From: Candidatus Marinacidobacterales bacterium
GTDB taxonomy: Bacteria; Acidobacteriota; Vicinamibacteria; Marinacidobacterales; DATDRI01
Direction: 5' to 3'
Assembly: GCA_965226495.1 (NCBI GenBank)
Contig: OZ245365.1
Location: 5,664,001-5,728,000, forward strand
Length of the DNA stretch: 64,000 nt
Below, one piece after another: positions 2,040-33,243 of the stretch (position 1 is its first letter; the number at the start of each line of letters is the position of its first letter). The notes beneath the pieces were generated by a model. The model was given only the letters and a program-made list of their open reading frames with translations, was not told the DNA's origin and made no database searches. A program made the position numbers and the translations under genes.

Positions 2040-3136
2040 CTAGCCCTCACCGTCTCCAAAAGACGTCCCAAGGTCCCGCGCGGCGCGGATGATGTCCGAC
2101 CCCTTCGGCACGCGCTTCAATCGTCCCACCGCTTTCTTCAGAGGAACGGAAGTAATCGACGGCGGAGCCAGCGCCACCATGCGCCCCCATCCTCCATCTC
2201 GAGCGAGACGCACCGCCGCGGAACCGAAGCGCGTTCCCAACAGGCGATCGAAGTTCGTCGGCTGGCCTCCACGCTGAAGGTGCCCCAGCACGAGCGCTCG
2301 GCATTCCTGTCCCGTGAGCTCTTCGATCTGCTCGGCAACCTGCTCGCCGATGCCGCCCAACCGCCCCTCGTACCCCTTCCCCGCCTTTTCTCGGAAGAGC
2401 TTCATTCCTCCGACCGGTGTGGCGCCTTCCGCAACCACGACGATACTGAAATTTCGCCCGCGTCGATTTCGTTCGCGGATTTTTTCCACAACCACTGCCA
2501 TGTCGAATGGAATCTCCGGGATCAAAATCACATCCGCACCGCCCGCAACCCATGCGTGGAGGGCAATCCACCCCGCGTTACGGCCCATGACTTCCAATAT
2601 CATCACACGCCGGTGACTGGAAGCGGTCGTATGAAGACGATCGAGGGCTTCTGTGGCCACGCTTACCGCGGTGTCGAAGCCAAAAGTAATGACGGTTCCA
2701 GAGAGGTCGTTGTCGATCGTCTTGGGGACACCAATAACGGGCAGGCCCTTGCGGTAGAGCCCCAGAGCAATGGAGAGCGTTCCATCGCCGCCGACCACGA
2801 CGAGCCCGTGAAGCTCCAGGGTCCGAAAATTCTTGACCACCTCATCGGATCGATCTTGGTACTCGACTCCGGACCTGTCTTGACTGGGAACTTGAACGGA
2901 TGTCCTCGGTTGCTCGCACCCAGAATCGTGCCGCCGGTGTGAAGAATGCCTCGGACGTCTTTGGACTTCAGCAGTCTCGTCTTCTTCGTCTGGAGGAAAC
3001 CGCCGAAGCTTTCTTCGATCCCCAACACTTGCCAACCGATGTTGTCAGCGGTGCGGAAAACGGCGCGGATCACCGCATTCAATCCCGCGCAGTCTCCTCC
3101 GCCGGTCAAGATGCCGATTCGTTTGGTCTTTCCCAT
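2040..3136 (-). pseudogene. pfkA: 6-phosphofructokinase, split by one frameshift near 2870
   Basis: N-terminal ILTGGGDCAGLNAVIRA and GGTILGASNRG lie in ORF 2663..3136; GGDGT, VPKTIDND, EVMGRNAGW and LGHLQRGG lie in ORF 2040..3035. Adding one base at AGG(x)TCC joins them. Could be a sequencing error. Confidence 0.85.
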
Positions 3137-3154
3137 TTGATGGCTCGACGCGGA

Positions 3155-4291
3155 CTAGCGATAAAAAGAGACAACGGCGCGCGCGACAAGCTCGACCTGC
3201 GCCTCGCTGAGCTCCGGATAGAGCGGTAGAGAAACGATCTCCCGCGCAGCTCGCTCCGCTTCGGGGCATGCTCCCTCACCTTGGCCCAAGCCTCGATAAG
3301 CCGGTTGAAGATGCGCCGGCACCGGGTAGTGGATGAGGGTTTGAACTCCGGCTTCCGACAAGGCCTCCGCTAAGCGATCCCGGTCCGGGGCGCGAGCGAC
3401 CAAAAGGTGAGCTGACGGTACCGTGTCGGGAAGAGCATCCACCCAGTCGAGGGGTGTCTCGGCAAGCGCTTCGCGATATAGGGCCGCAATAGCCCGCCGG
3501 CGCTCGTTCCAGGCGGCAAGGTGGGGTAGCTTTGCACGCAGTACGGCGGCCTGAAGCTCATCCAATCGACTGTTGAATCCAACTTCTTCGTGAACGTAGC
3601 GGCTCGATTGTCCCCCGTTCCGCAGCCGACGGATCCGTCCCGCCAATTCCTCGTCGTCGGTGGTGACGAGACCTGCGTCTCCGAGAGCGCCCAGATTCTT
3701 GGTGGGATAAAAACTGAAGCAGCCGGCCCGCCCCCAACCTCCCACCGGCCGTCCACGGAACGTCGCCCCGTGCGCCTGGCAAGCATCTTCAACGACGGGG
3801 ATGCCGTATTTATCGGCCAATTCTAAGAGCGCAGGCATCTCGCTCGGATTCCCGTAGAGATGAACGGGTAGCAATGCCTTGGTACTCGGGTCCATTCTTT
3901 CCGAGACCGAGCGCGGCGAGAGGTTCAAGGTCGCCGAATCCACATCTGCGAAGACCGGCGTCGCGCCGGTGCGACTGATCGCCAACGCGGTAAAGGTCGC
4001 GGTCATGGGGCTAGTGATCACGTTATCCCCGGGGCCCACCCCGAGTGATAGAAGGGCCAGCGTCAACGCATCCGTCCCGGAGGCAACGCCGACCGCATGT
4101 GCGGTCTCTACCATGGACGCAAACTCATGTTCGAAGGCTTCCACTTCCGGACCTAAGACGAACCAGCCGCTCTCCATCACGCGAGTCAAAGCGTCTCGGA
4201 TCTCCGCGGCGAGCGCCGCGTGTTGGGTGGTCAGGTCGACAAAAGGGACCGGGGGGCTGGGTTGGTCCGGTTTGTCATTTGGGGAAGGCAC
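3155..4291 (-). CDS. DegT/DnrJ/EryC1/StrS family sugar aminotransferase
   Basis: VPFVDL, SGTDALTLAL, PVHLYG, EDACQAHGA, FSFYPTKNLGALGDAG (PLP Lys), NSRLDELQAA; likely start GTG 4291. Confidence 0.93.
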   Translation of the reverse strand: MPSPNDKPDQPSPPVPFVDLTTQHAALAAEIRDALTRVMESGWFVLGPEVEAFEHEFASMVETAHAVGVASGTDALTLALLSLGVGPGDNVITSPMTATFTALAISRTGATPVFADVDSATLNLSPRSVSERMDPSTKALLPVHLYGNPSEMPALLELADKYGIPVVEDACQAHGATFRGRPVGGWGRAGCFSFYPTKNLGALGDAGLVTTDDEELAGRIRRLRNGGQSSRYVHEEVGFNSRLDELQAAVLRAKLPHLAAWNERRRAIAALYREALAETPLDWVDALPDTVPSAHLLVARAPDRDRLAEALSEAGVQTLIHYPVPAHLQPAYRGLGQGEGACPEAERAAREIVSLPLYPELSEAQVELVARAVVSFYR

Positions 4292-30456: not shown

Positions 30457-31089
30457 GTGGAAGAGCGTCTCGCAGATCGCTTGCGCGGACTGGACATCCC
30501 CCTAGGCAGTGCTCAGGTCGGGCAGCTGGTCAAGCTCGATGACCTGCTCGACAAGTGGAGCGAGGCCGTCGATCTCTCGGGATTTCGAGATGGCGAGGAA
30601 CGGTTCCATCGCTACTTGGCGGAGCCTCTCGACGCCCATCGATGGCTCCCCGCCCTCACCGGCGCGGCCCTCGATATCGGCTCCGGTGGGGGCAGCCCCG
30701 CCCTTCCTTTAGCCGTCGCGCGTCCAGGTGATCGCTGGACCCTTCTCGAGCCCAACCGCCGACGGGCGGTCTTTCTGGAGGAAGCCCTGTCGATCTTGGG
30801 GCTCGAAGCGTCGCACGTGGTCCGCCGACGGTGGGAAGACTTCGTTCCCGACGCACCCTTCCTGACGATCACCAGCCGTGGGGTTGCTTTGCCAGCGAGC
30901 GCGCTTTCGACACTGGCCCACTGGCTCGAGCCAGCAGGAAGGCTTCTCTTGTTCACGGGCCAGGAGCGTAGTGAGGAATTGGTGCAATGGGGGGCCGACA
31001 TCCCGACGCTCCACCTCAAGGGGCAGATCGCCCTCGGCCCCCAGCTCAAGGCGTGGCTGGTCGTCTTCGAGGGGCGCGGGACGACGTGA
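30457..31089 (+). CDS. rsmG: 16S rRNA m7G527 methyltransferase (divergent)
   Basis: LDIGSGGGSPALPLA, TLLEPNRRRAVFL, ITSRGVA; position before parAB. Confidence 0.82.
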   Translation: MEERLADRLRGLDIPLGSAQVGQLVKLDDLLDKWSEAVDLSGFRDGEERFHRYLAEPLDAHRWLPALTGAALDIGSGGGSPALPLAVARPGDRWTLLEPNRRRAVFLEEALSILGLEASHVVRRRWEDFVPDAPFLTITSRGVALPASALSTLAHWLEPAGRLLLFTGQERSEELVQWGADIPTLHLKGQIALGPQLKAWLVVFEGRGTT

Positions 31090-31456
31090 GTGACGAGAGC
31101 CTTTCGGCCAGCTCGTCGAGCCGCTCGCGCTCCGGGTGACGGAACCGCGATTTGATCTCCACCATTTCTCGCCAGACGCCGAAGACCTCGTGTTTGTGCC
31201 CCAGCAAAGGGTAACGGTCGAAATGGTCCACGACGGGAAGGAGCTCGTTATGGCGGCTGACACGGTAGTAAAGTCCCCCGGGCGAGACCGGATAAATCCG
31301 ACCCCCACCCCAATAGCTCTGAAGGTCCTCCAGAATGACTCGGTCCCGCTCGGGAAGACGGAGGGAGAAGTAGACCGAGATGTTGCCGGCGCTGCGGCTA
31401 AAGGTGAAAGAGCCGCTCGCGTCGGCGAGTCCGGTGACGTATTCGGGGGCTAGCAT
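31046..31456 (-). CDS. Single-motif LAGLIDADG-family protein, predicted nuclease-dead
   Basis: YVTGLADASGSF helix, then RDRVILEDLQSYWGGGRIY, YYRVSRHNELLPVVDHFDRYPLLGHK, matching the LAGLIDADG_1 pattern. Confidence 0.85.
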   Translation of the reverse strand: MLAPEYVTGLADASGSFTFSRSAGNISVYFSLRLPERDRVILEDLQSYWGGGRIYPVSPGGLYYRVSRHNELLPVVDHFDRYPLLGHKHEVFGVWREMVEIKSRFRHPERERLDELAERLSSLTSSRAPRRRPATP

Positions 31457-31498
31457 CGTCTATAAGTTCGGGGCACCTGAAACTGTTTATATCAGAAC

Positions 31499-31514
31499 TG
31501 TTTCACGTGCAACA
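31499..31514. promoter_or_regulatory. parS centromere site
   Basis: TGTTTCACGTGCAACA, one mismatch to the consensus TGTTTCACGTGAAACA, about 95 bp upstream of parA. Confidence 0.9.
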
Positions 31515-31607
31515 TCCGTGACTGCTCAGCTAGTGGGTGGCACGAGTTGACACGACAAGGTTTCCTGCGGGGATGGGCGTTCATGCTATGCTGTGTCCTT
31601 CCGTCTT

Positions 31608-32384
31608 ATGGGCAGAATTGTCGCAATAGCTAACCAAAAGGGCGGTGTCGGAAAGACCACCACCGCGATCAACCTGGGGTCGTCCCTCGCCGCGGCCGAG
31701 GTCAGCACGCTCGTCGTGGATGTGGATCCCCAAGCAAACCTGACGAGTGGGTTAGGGCTTAGGCCGAAATCCCAAAACGGGACCATCTACGATGCTCTCA
31801 TCGGGGACAAACCGGTCACGAGCTTGATCGTGGACACGTCGCTCGAACACCTGAAAGCGATCACGTCTGAACGCAATTTGACCGGGGCGGAAATCGAATT
31901 GGTGGGCGAGTCGCGCCGCGAATTTCGACTCAAGGATGTCCTGGCGCCGATCGTCTCGGATTTTGACTATGTGCTCATCGACTGTCCTCCTTCGCTGGGG
32001 TTGCTTACGGTGAATGCCTTGGTGGCGGCCGACTCGGTTCTGATTCCACTGCAGTGCGAGTTCTTTGCGCTGGAGGGAGTGAGCGAGCTCATGTCCACCG
32101 TCGAGAGAATTCAGCAAAGTTTCAACCCGGAGCTGACGGTCGAAGGTATCCTCTTGACGATGTTCGACGAGCGGACCAACCTCTCCGCCCAAGTCATCGA
32201 AGACGTCCGGAAGCATTTCCAAGGAGCAGTCTTCGAGAGCGTCGTGCCCCGCAACATCCGGCTTGCCGAGGCCCCTTCCCATGGGCAACCGATTCTGCTG
32301 TACGACATCCGATCCAAGGGAGCGGAGGCGTATTTGTCGCTCACCAAGGAGATCCTGAAGCATGAAACGCAAAGCGCTCGGTAA
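31608..32384 (+). CDS. parA: Chromosome partitioning ATPase ParA/Soj
   Basis: NQKGGVGKTTT, DVDPQAN, IDCPPSLGLLT, QCEFFALEG, RLAEAPSHG. Confidence 0.97.
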   Translation: MGRIVAIANQKGGVGKTTTAINLGSSLAAAEVSTLVVDVDPQANLTSGLGLRPKSQNGTIYDALIGDKPVTSLIVDTSLEHLKAITSERNLTGAEIELVGESRREFRLKDVLAPIVSDFDYVLIDCPPSLGLLTVNALVAADSVLIPLQCEFFALEGVSELMSTVERIQQSFNPELTVEGILLTMFDERTNLSAQVIEDVRKHFQGAVFESVVPRNIRLAEAPSHGQPILLYDIRSKGAEAYLSLTKEILKHETQSAR

Positions 32385-33243
32385 AGGTTTATCCGCCCTG
32401 CTTCCGCAGGCTCCCGCCGGCGCCGCCGAGAATTGGGCGGAGATCGAGATCGAGCGCATCGACCCCAACCCCTTCCAGCCGCGACAGCACATGGAAGAGG
32501 GGAAGCTCCGCGAGCTTTCGGAGTCACTATCCAAACAAGGGTTCATGCAACCGCTTCTCGTTCGGCGTATCGCCGGACGCTATCAACTCATTGCCGGAGA
32601 ACGGCGCTGGCGAGCCGCCCGACTGGCCGGGCTCAAGAAAGTGCCTGTGGTCGTCCGGCAAGTTGAGGAATCCCAGCTCCTCGAGCTGGCACTCATCGAG
32701 AACATCCAGCGAGAAGAGTTGAACCCCATCGAAGAGGCCGGTGCGTACCAGAAGCTGATTTCGGAGCTCGGTTTGTCCCAGGAGCAGGTTGCGTCGCGCG
32801 TCTCCAAGGACCGATCCACCGTGGCGAACATGCTTCGGCTACTGCGCCTACCCACCGCTATACGGAAAGCCATCGCCCAGCAACAGATATCGCCCGGTCA
32901 CGCCCGACCGCTGCTGGCGCTCGACGGGGCCGACGCCCAGATGGGTATTGCCCGTGAGGTCGTCGAAAAAGGACTTTCCGTTCGTGACGTCGAGCGGCGC
33001 GTGAAGGCGCTTCTCACCGAGAAGAGCCGCTCAGGGAAAAAGAAGACGAAGTCGCCGCTTGCCGATCCCAATACGCGAGCAGCCGAGGACCGGCTCCGAC
33101 AGGTTCTGGGCACCCGAGTCCGCATCCTTCGAAACGGCCGCGCCGGACGGATCGAGCTCTCGTTCCACTCCGAGGAAGACCTCAGCCGCCTCTACGAGAT
33201 GCTGCTCCGCGGAGCTCGCGCGAAGCTATCGCGCATCCGTTGA
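32362..33243 (+). CDS. parB: Chromosome partitioning CTPase ParB/Spo0J
   Basis: LGKGLSALL, PNPFQPR, IAGERRWRAA, ENIQREELNPIEEA, KDRSTVANMLRLL. Confidence 0.97.
   Translation: MKRKALGKGLSALLPQAPAGAAENWAEIEIERIDPNPFQPRQHMEEGKLRELSESLSKQGFMQPLLVRRIAGRYQLIAGERRWRAARLAGLKKVPVVVRQVEESQLLELALIENIQREELNPIEEAGAYQKLISELGLSQEQVASRVSKDRSTVANMLRLLRLPTAIRKAIAQQQISPGHARPLLALDGADAQMGIAREVVEKGLSVRDVERRVKALLTEKSRSGKKKTKSPLADPNTRAAEDRLRQVLGTRVRILRNGRAGRIELSFHSEEDLSRLYEMLLRGARAKLSRIR

Follow-up and report, generated by a model that had tools for sequence, protein, structure and literature searches.

A LAGLIDADG Protein Without the Catalytic Acid, Encoded Beside the Chromosomal parS Site of a Marinacidobacterales Bacterium, and Its parS-Linked Family

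INTRODUCTION

We describe a gene for a small LAGLIDADG protein that lacks the catalytic acid of its homing-endonuclease relatives and is encoded immediately beside parS, the chromosomal centromere site, in a Candidatus Marinacidobacterales bacterium. It was found in a stretch of 64,000 nucleotides (nt) of contig OZ245365.1, positions 5,664,001 to 5,728,000, which is called the window in the following and whose own numbering is used for the coordinates of its features. An earlier note on this DNA, written from the letters of the sequence, had pointed to a minus-strand gene of 136 amino acids (aa) between rsmG and parA, and this is the open reading frame (ORF) found at 31046–31456 on the minus strand; it begins with ATG, encodes a single domain and has Ser14 at the catalytic position, and its assignment is based on the ORF, a Pfam match, a structural model, homologues and the ratio of nonsynonymous to synonymous substitution rates (dN/dS). 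The gene is real and is maintained by selection. We regard its product as probably a domesticated, homodimeric, nuclease-dead binder of the parS region, derived from a free-standing homing endonuclease that settled beside parS, and as a likely regulator or modulator of the partition locus. The principal chromosome segregation system of bacteria is ParABS, whose core components have been under study for decades; a further conserved protein associated with parS in several phyla would add to the bacterial centromere either a new accessory component or a new parasite.

FOLD, CATALYTIC POSITION AND PREDICTED DIMER

The window's protein matches the Pfam family LAGLIDADG_1 (PF00961) with an E value of 2.4e-11 and 44.9 bits, above the curated cut-off of 23.1, and the match joins residues 8–98 of the protein to positions 2–101 of the 102-position profile, nearly its whole length; a single-motif LAGLIDADG pattern along the protein had been noticed earlier. 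No family of NCBIfam or PHROGs was matched by the 136-aa protein. In the HMMER alignment, the motif VTGLADASGSF falls on the LAGLIDADG motif of I-OnuI-type enzymes and Ser14 stands opposite their catalytic Glu, in agreement with the replacement of the catalytic acid by Ser that had been read from the sequence; because the metal-binding acid is absent, the protein should be unable to cut DNA. In a sequence search of solved proteins, the best relative was 36of_A (named aHE15 by its depositors; E 5.5e-22), variants of I-OnuI were found at about 1e-19 and the homodimeric I-TnaI at 2.8e-4, and I-CreI was not among the matches.

The structure model has a predicted local distance difference test score (pLDDT) of 90.5 and places a helix at residues 4–14, strands at 15–22 and 25–35, a helix at 36–49, strands at 53–57 and 61–66, and a helix at 69–81; the C-terminal 10–12 residues or so, encoded where the gene overlaps the 3' end of rsmG, are modeled with low confidence and make up a basic tail. 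The best Foldseek matches of the model are LAGLIDADG meganucleases with E values of about 5e-10, the homodimeric I-TnaI included. A homodimer prediction, which the earlier note had suggested as a check, gave the usual dimer through the LAGLIDADG helix (interface residues 2–14) with an ipSAE interface score of 0.75 (runs 0.72–0.76) against 0.01 for the best control; agreement between the runs is at least 85% of contacts, and the pLDDT of the partner is 84. Of the proteins solved as pairs of one chain, 20 of 30 reached the mark set for this score, as did 1 of the 23 solved as single chains, and the passing score may reflect likeness to solved LAGLIDADG homodimers. The protein has one domain only, without a Pfam match to a helix-turn-helix (HTH) or to the WhiA family at E values up to 1, and the distinction from WhiA that had been drawn before is thus upheld.

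A FAMILY LINKED TO parS AND parAB

At 31499–31514 of the window lies the 16-mer TGTTTCACGTGCAACA, which agrees at 15 of 16 positions with the parS consensus, and which a pattern search of the whole 6.3-Mb genome, allowing up to two mismatches, found to be its sole parS-like site. The start codon of the LAGLIDADG gene is separated from it by 42 nt, close to the 43 bp given earlier. On the side of the LAGLIDADG gene, two degenerate parS-like units recognized by reading the sequence abut parS at 31474–31498, namely a unit at 31484–31498 with the arms kept and an AT-rich center, and a half site at 31474–31483. One parS-like site each was counted in G000–G004, G006, G008, G010 and G184, and two in G005, always between rsmG and parA and regardless of whether the gene is present; in G000, the window's genome, it is the site beside the gene. 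A single site is unusually few for chromosomes of 3–8 Mb.

We define the family here as proteins with a single domain of 120–215 aa and the N-terminal pattern L-x-P-(W/E)-Y-V-T-G, encoded in one copy per genome with a parS-like site (up to 3 of the 14 specified positions mismatched) no more than 150 nt upstream, and the window's gene has all of these features. It is present in one copy in its own genome and is likewise single in all six genomes checked. Scans of genomes and metagenome contigs gave 9 and 47 family loci, respectively, 56 in total. From the 73 metagenome loci, 26 (L070–L072, L074–L093, L095–L097) were excluded as other LAGLIDADG genes outside a parS/parAB context, with identities of at most 37% apart from one of 51% over 20 residues, and from the genome contigs L019 was dropped because tblastn gave no LAGLIDADG match.

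Of 49 distinct loci, 45 have a parS-like site in the 150 nt upstream of the gene; among 1197 background windows taken from the same loci, 5 have one. Adjacent to the gene, parA, parB, rsmG, yidC or mnmG was present in 47 of the 56 family loci, the other nine being mostly contigs of 1–2.5 kb, and none of these five genes was found at the 26 more distant LAGLIDADG loci of the same scan. Four gene orders were distinguished, whose only common feature is adjacency to parS, with the parS-like site just upstream of the start. Order A is that of the window (parB< parA< [parS] gene> rsmG< mnmG<), and in order B (yidC> [parS-like] gene> parA> parB>) 0–36 nt separate the gene from parA; order C reads mnmG> rsmG> [parS] gene>, and order D, in which an unrelated gene precedes three parS-like units, the family gene and a convergent rsmG, was seen in two metagenome-assembled genomes (MAGs) labeled Myxococcota, with no parAB within 4 kb. 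Most members are preceded by an array of two or three abutting units of 15–16 bp, of which one is a good parS, one has conserved arms and a changed center, and one is a half or whole unit reaching up to or into the start codon. Order B is seen in Omnitrophota: of the 22 places with a match, 18 hold family members followed directly by parA, and 17 of these have the complete order, the arrangement in 17 genomes being yidC-LAGLIDADG-parA-parB with the gene 0–20 nt upstream of parA. The synteny check suggested earlier therefore shows that the linkage to parS and parAB is kept far beyond the genus. Two loci of order A, L015 (2547–4037) and L018 (about 2500–3960), have 1.5 kb between parA and the parS array, and in L015 this stretch holds a gene of the CCA-adding enzyme/poly(A) polymerase family (PF01743, PF12627, HD).

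The linkage can be recognized even in protein sequences, since gene callers often read through parS units, and 18 of 132 short family proteins start with translated parS peptides such as ETFSRGT, ETVSRET and FHVKH (N-termini of P0020–P0135). Such peptides usefully indicate an adjacent parS when only protein sequences are available. Identities of the LAGLIDADG proteins and of the corresponding ParA proteins are correlated with a Spearman coefficient of 0.74 (406 pairs from 29 loci, the pairs not being independent); because both proteins have identities of about 45–55% between phyla and the pairs are non-independent, this co-phylogeny is compatible both with ancient vertical descent and with old transfer.

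Among 61 related genomes, strong matches were found in four, G000 included (seven at E values up to 0.001). Both other genomes of the same genus have the gene at 88–90% identity and the sister genus has it at 67%; elsewhere in these 61 genomes, namely in three further genera of the family and the remainder of the order, there were no strong matches. The gene order of G002 is that of the window, and so is that of G003. Beyond these relatives, a word-indexed search of 5.8 billion proteins returned 31 clusters of 124–158 aa with 40–89% identity, and a profile search of 1.84 billion representatives gave 91 matches below 1e-30, of which the best are mostly single-domain proteins of 120–215 aa, shading into two-domain organelle-type enzymes from about 1e-36. 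The MAGs with family loci are labeled Marinacidobacterales (the window's group), Thermoanaerobaculia, other Acidobacteriota, Kofleriaceae, "Deltaproteobacteria," "proteobacterium," Eremiobacterota and Omnitrophota. The family thus occurs in MAGs of several phyla and is apparently undescribed. One carrier from another family of the window's phylum, G184, combines order A with Cys at the catalytic position, and its parS, 29 nt upstream, is perfect. The earlier note had held that sporadic, non-syntenic or decaying homologues would speak against domestication; the homologues are indeed sporadic, yet they are syntenic and not decaying.

A tblastn search for plasmid or phage vehicles gave no phage match and lends no support to such a vehicle. 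It returned two unannotated records described as Peribacillus plasmids of 26–39 kb (NZ_CP110133.1 and NZ_CP110134.1), with LAGLIDADG matches of 33–36% identity, and we suspect that these are not real plasmids and are perhaps organelle DNA. Other LAGLIDADG-like frames of 160–187 aa, 25–30% identical, occur at L007, L008 and L009 (G008, G002 and G003); there is no parS or parAB near them, and the window's own genome has no frame of this type. One metagenome protein of 141 aa, P0015, has both ends of the G002 type and residues 16–55 scrambled as if by a pair of compensating frameshifts, and one DNA run has a +1/−1 indel pair 7 nt apart at window positions 31276/31283.

THE CATALYTIC ACID ACROSS THE FAMILY

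When the residue at position 14 was examined in 122 sequences of a 124-sequence alignment, Glu or Asp was found in 46 and neither in 76, the latter having Ala in 22, Ser in 20, Ile in 10, Leu in 5, Val in 4, Gly, Gln and Cys in 3 each, and others. Counted by locus, 58 loci have Glu in 25, Ala in 16, Ser in 7, Ile in 3, Gln in 2 and His in 2, with three unreadable, and all 16 Omnitrophota members with a readable motif have Glu. In the acid-less sequences the neighboring Gly13 falls from 87% to 36% and the loop residue Lys59 is lost or relaxed, and the rest of the protein is conserved. The trees were quick ones, with support from the approximate likelihood ratio test of the Shimodaira–Hasegawa type (SH-aLRT) only, and the rows of L004, L061, L066, L069, L073 and L094, in which the motif expression failed or fewer than 100 residues followed the motif, were dropped from them. 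In a tree rooted with N-terminal domains of eight two-domain relatives, the 52 family rows stand apart from this outgroup (SH-aLRT 91). The window's gene belongs to a clade of 25 rows (SH-aLRT 97) in which no member has the acid (Ala, Ser, Gln, His or Ile instead) and which also holds genes labeled Myxococcota, Eremiobacterota and "proteobacterium"; the genes of order B form a Glu clade (SH-aLRT 98), a 19-row clade keeps Glu, and several Glu lineages are basal. On the unrooted 52-row tree, at least three changes between acid and no acid are required.

The conserved loss of the catalytic acid that the earlier note had looked for therefore holds throughout the 25-row clade and fails for the family as a whole, in which 46 of 122 representatives keep Glu or Asp. 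Its inference of an independent domestication is affected in the same way: the single domain without the acid, the predicted dimer, the synteny and dN/dS agree with it, and the gene is not private to one lineage, belonging as it does to a parS-linked family with many acid-bearing members.

We also considered that the protein might still be a nuclease or nickase, acting through another residue such as Asp12 or as a heterodimer with another LAGLIDADG protein, because Asp12 and the conserved Lys102 remain. Within the acid-less clade, position 14 varies freely (S, G, I, A, V, Q, C, H) and Gly13 is relaxed, and the genome has no second copy with which to pair; we consider residual cleavage very improbable.

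The surface expected to face DNA is constrained regardless of the acid. Among the 124 sequences, the strand residues T18 (94%), S20 (78%), R21 (86%), K/R33 (92%), Y55 (97%) and R65 (90%) are conserved, with or without the acid. Such DNA-facing strand positions are variable in ordinary homing endonuclease families, and their conservation here suggests that the family has one DNA target in common.

EMPTY SITES AND PURIFYING SELECTION

All five relatives without the gene that were examined, belonging to three genera of the family and two of the next, have rsmG, about 100 nt with a single parS, and parA; their parS is perfect in four and has one mismatch in one. The earlier view that no host gene is interrupted is confirmed here, since rsmG, one parS and parA are intact in these relatives. 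The parS of the window stands at the same position as the single parS of the relatives, and the two degenerate units are not present at their empty sites; when G006 is aligned with the window, the extra DNA lies exactly between the rsmG stop codon and parS and consists of the ORF plus the two degenerate units. In an Omnitrophota genome that lacks the gene and has a ParA 75% identical to a carrier's, yidC is followed by a promoter, two parS-like units and parA. In three DNA runs, strain variants of the gene were seen and no contig joined rsmG to parS without the gene. Being rare, patchy and beside parS where present, the genes show the pattern of a site-specific invader, which points to a family that began as a homing element aimed at the parS region.

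On codons 1–122, which avoid the overlap with rsmG, the Nei-Gojobori dN/dS of the window's clade is 0.08–0.31 in 36 pairs of nine sequences from two genera, with dS ranging from 0.07 to values above 2. The ratio is 0.10–0.25 in four other acid-less groups and one mixed Glu/Ala pair, and in the Glu clade its median is 0.089, taken over the 27 usable pairs (dS 0.02–2.5) out of 120. In the same genome pairs, dN/dS is 0.08–0.20 for the LAGLIDADG gene, 0.07–0.09 for parA, 0.14–0.29 for rsmG and 0.09–0.20 for jag, with similar dS, and the gene has therefore come down together with the locus, under constraint equal to that on its housekeeping neighbors. The expectation of dN/dS below 1 was thus borne out, with values resembling those of rsmG, jag and parA.

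Two copies in close relatives are non-standard. In G003 (L004, 1501–1896) the frame is interrupted by a single TGA after codon 86, at a position occupied by Arg in relatives, and the rest aligns over 136 residues; this TGA, a recent nonsense mutation or an assembly error, makes it the sole broken copy among the sequences used for dN/dS, and its nearest metagenome relatives are intact. In G001, an ORF of 417 aa for an IS256-like transposase (L003, 1618–2871, also seen at L011) lies between the LAGLIDADG gene and rsmG, and the distance from the parS array to the start is longer by about 110 nt; the LAGLIDADG ORF itself is intact, with a changed C-terminus (128 aa).

These observations bear on the explanation that the gene is a selfish relic, that is, an inactivated free-standing homing endonuclease gene without host function which looks conserved through recency or by hitch-hiking with essential neighbors. 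The patchy distribution with clean empty sites in close relatives, the true homing endonucleases among the nearest relatives, the in-frame stop of G003, and the transposase and insertion around the G001 copy are all as expected for a relic. Recency, however, is difficult to reconcile with a dN/dS of 0.08–0.31 that persists at dS above 1 across two genera and is similarly low in four further acid-less groups, or with an acid-less clade that is old and spread over MAGs labeled as several phyla, and hitch-hiking does not reduce dN relative to dS. We therefore consider the relic explanation improbable.

PROPOSED ROLE AT THE parS REGION

We propose that the ancestor belonged to a free-standing lineage of homing endonucleases with members immediately beside parS, and that the nuclease site was lost long ago in the window's lineage, the protein being retained as a DNA-binding factor of the parS/parAB region. 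The dimer would bind a palindromic site in the parS-like array through the conserved beta-sheet surface. The array is the suggested target because it is the only DNA conserved beside all members and because the parS palindrome suits a homodimer. The second unit, with its arms kept and its center changed, would suit a LAGLIDADG dimer and not ParB, judging from what is generally known of the contacts between LAGLIDADG enzymes and their sites. Transcription of the LAGLIDADG gene is proposed to begin inside or beside the array, and the gene would thereby be exposed to ParB bound at parS, which would sit on or just downstream of the promoter, given where the start of the gene and, in order B, its promoter are placed. 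Its role in the cell may be that of a regulator of the partition complex or of an accessory to it.

Promoter-like sequences lie near the array. Inspection by eye found a possible, weak extended −10 of the LAGLIDADG gene (TGnTATAAA) at 31486–31494 on the minus strand, with a −35-like hexamer TTGCAC located inside parS, 15 nt upstream of this putative −10. In two Omnitrophota-type loci, a scan found a promoter of the form TTGACA-16-GATAAT (11 of 12 positions) just upstream of the parS-like units.

Several points weigh against the proposed domestication and role. A consensus scan of 30900–31700 for promoters of the sigma-70 type found none. The array has been read as an operator by eye only, G184 shows one perfect parS without a clear array, and two parS-like units are already present at the Omnitrophota site that lacks the gene. 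Carriers are rare, numbering 4 of 401 sampled genomes of the window's phylum (G000 counted), from different families, and 21 of 301 sampled Omnitrophota genomes, with matches at 22 places; these prevalences are lower bounds because 10–13 first-look candidates were scored per genome and many MAGs are incomplete. Such rarity means that, whatever the gene does, its role is dispensable for ParABS in general, and the in-frame TGA of G003 means that loss is tolerated, unless it is an assembly error. Since 46 of 122 sequences keep the acid, part of the family may consist of active selfish nucleases. Finally, in the one RNA run found (X20), which has few words in common with the region, contigs cover only the conserved Walker-box part of parA and one 217-nt piece of parA, and none covers the LAGLIDADG gene.

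The repeated changes between acid and no acid raise the explanation that the protein is an immunity factor, a dead dimer which occupies the target in the parS region and shields the sole centromere from circulating Glu-bearing relatives. Active-looking and dead forms have common strand residues and so probably a common target, the target region is unique in the genome, at least three acid/no-acid changes are seen on the 52-row tree, and there is purifying selection without catalysis. This explanation has to assume, however, that some member cleaves parS or its flank, and the target would normally have been disrupted or altered already by the insertion of the gene; in addition, we know of no precedent for it. 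We consider immunity unlikely and prefer the domesticated binder with a role at the partition locus.

Two related ideas on the array were tried and rejected. One was that occupied sites carry a mutated parS as immunity, considering that parS of the window's clade has one mismatch and that four of the five empty sites are perfect; the fifth empty site also has one mismatch, and such immunity is not general because the carrier G184 has a perfect parS 29 nt upstream. The other was that the tandem array occurs only with the gene, which is true for the window's gene order; the idea is weakened by the Omnitrophota relative G465, which lacks the gene and already has two parS-like units before parA.

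A wider reading covering the whole family is offered only tentatively and seems to us possible but rather doubtful: homodimeric LAGLIDADG homing endonucleases would use parS as their homing site, and dead dimers would have been recruited repeatedly as partners of ParB at parS arrays, tuning ParB loading or parAB expression or shielding the centromere. As a homing site, parS would be unique, palindromic, conserved across phyla and hard to mutate away, and homing at parS would let the gene land on either side of it, giving at least four gene orders in several phyla.

NEIGHBORING GENES OF THE WINDOW

The local gene order is yidC, jag (R3H), rsmG, the LAGLIDADG gene on the opposite strand, parA and parB. 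The gene for 16S rRNA methyltransferase G, rsmG (30457–31089, plus strand; PF02527, 91.4 bits), is convergent with the LAGLIDADG gene, and the two overlap at 31046–31089, the 44 nt reported earlier. The gene parA, which encodes the Walker ATPase, lies at 31608–32384 on the plus strand (PF13614, 213.8 bits); an automatic ORF call extends it to a GTG at 31593, and the homologue N-termini, MG(K/R)(I/V)VAIANQKGG, favor the ATG at 31608, which they match. It is followed by parB at 32362–33243 on the plus strand (PF02195, PF17762, PF23552), the product having N-terminal, HTH and C-terminal ParB domains. The GC content of the LAGLIDADG gene is 0.623, and 0.73 at third codon positions (GC3), resembling the values of its neighbors (0.58–0.66 and 0.72–0.77), as in the earlier impression of a host-like composition. 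Upstream of parA, the conserved or nearly conserved element CATGCTATGCTGT (31582–31594, plus strand) is a likely extended −10 of the parAB promoter; an element like TGCTATGCT is located 14–26 nt upstream of the parA ATG, and it recurs exactly or as a close variant in G004, G005, G006, G008 and G010.

COMPARISON WITH KNOWN SYSTEMS

In the full-text literature searched, supplementary files being outside this search, no LAGLIDADG gene linked to parS, parAB or rsmG was described. What we find new and surprising is the partner, a bacterial centromere, for a domesticated or site-specific LAGLIDADG element. If the proposed domestication is correct, it would be the second bacterial domestication of a LAGLIDADG protein, independent of WhiA and simpler, with one domain and no added HTH. 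Because acid-bearing and acid-less members occur at the same site, the transition from active to dead forms could be studied directly. Cleavage at or next to parS by the acid-bearing members, if it occurs, would make them natural meganucleases with a target that most bacterial chromosomes carry once or a few times.

The closest relatives in sequence are enzymes of the I-OnuI family (I-OnuI, I-AabMI, I-CpaMI, I-PanMI, I-SmaMI and I-LtrI; phmmer E 1e-13 to 1e-22), which are also the closest in fold (Foldseek E about 5e-10, template modeling (TM) scores 0.74–0.79 on the query), with the same LAGLIDADG helix and four-stranded sheet. In these enzymes a single chain of about 300 aa holds two domains, each with an acid, and most are encoded in introns of organelles, whereas the window's protein has one domain of 136 aa without the acid and its gene is chromosomal and free-standing. 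In architecture it resembles the homodimeric I-TnaI/I-CreI type, for which the structure compared was that of I-TnaI (5gkk), with one domain per chain and a whole-chain match (TM 0.78 on the query, 0.72 on the target); dimerization through the LAGLIDADG helix is predicted likewise for the window's protein, and a palindromic target would be expected. The I-TnaI/I-CreI enzymes are active and intron-encoded in rRNA genes, whereas the window's gene is beside parS, in no intron, and has Ser at the catalytic position.

The autorepressor I-TevI and the HO endonuclease are given in one paper (PMC3384342) as examples of homing endonucleases, or proteins descended from them, in regulatory or host functions. 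These two belong to other families or architectures, and both are still nucleases. With respect to position, a parallel is Noc of Bacillus, a ParB paralogue encoded between gidB/rsmG and soj/parA; it is an accessory DNA-binding protein from the same spot of the rsmG-parA-parB cluster, of unrelated fold and origin.

WhiA is near-universal in Gram-positives. Two papers describe it as a bacterial LAGLIDADG-derived regulator without catalytic acids, which regulates a parAB promoter in Streptomyces (PMC3384342; PMC3781837), and one of them gives it two LAGLIDADG-like domains and a C-terminal HTH, a partly acidic sheet surface, and DNA binding that is probably through the HTH (PMC3384342). In contrast to WhiA (DUF199), the window's protein consists of a single domain with basic strand residues and lacks an HTH, and it is rare and tied to parS. 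The likeness between the two is one of principle only, namely that a LAGLIDADG scaffold is retained without catalysis.

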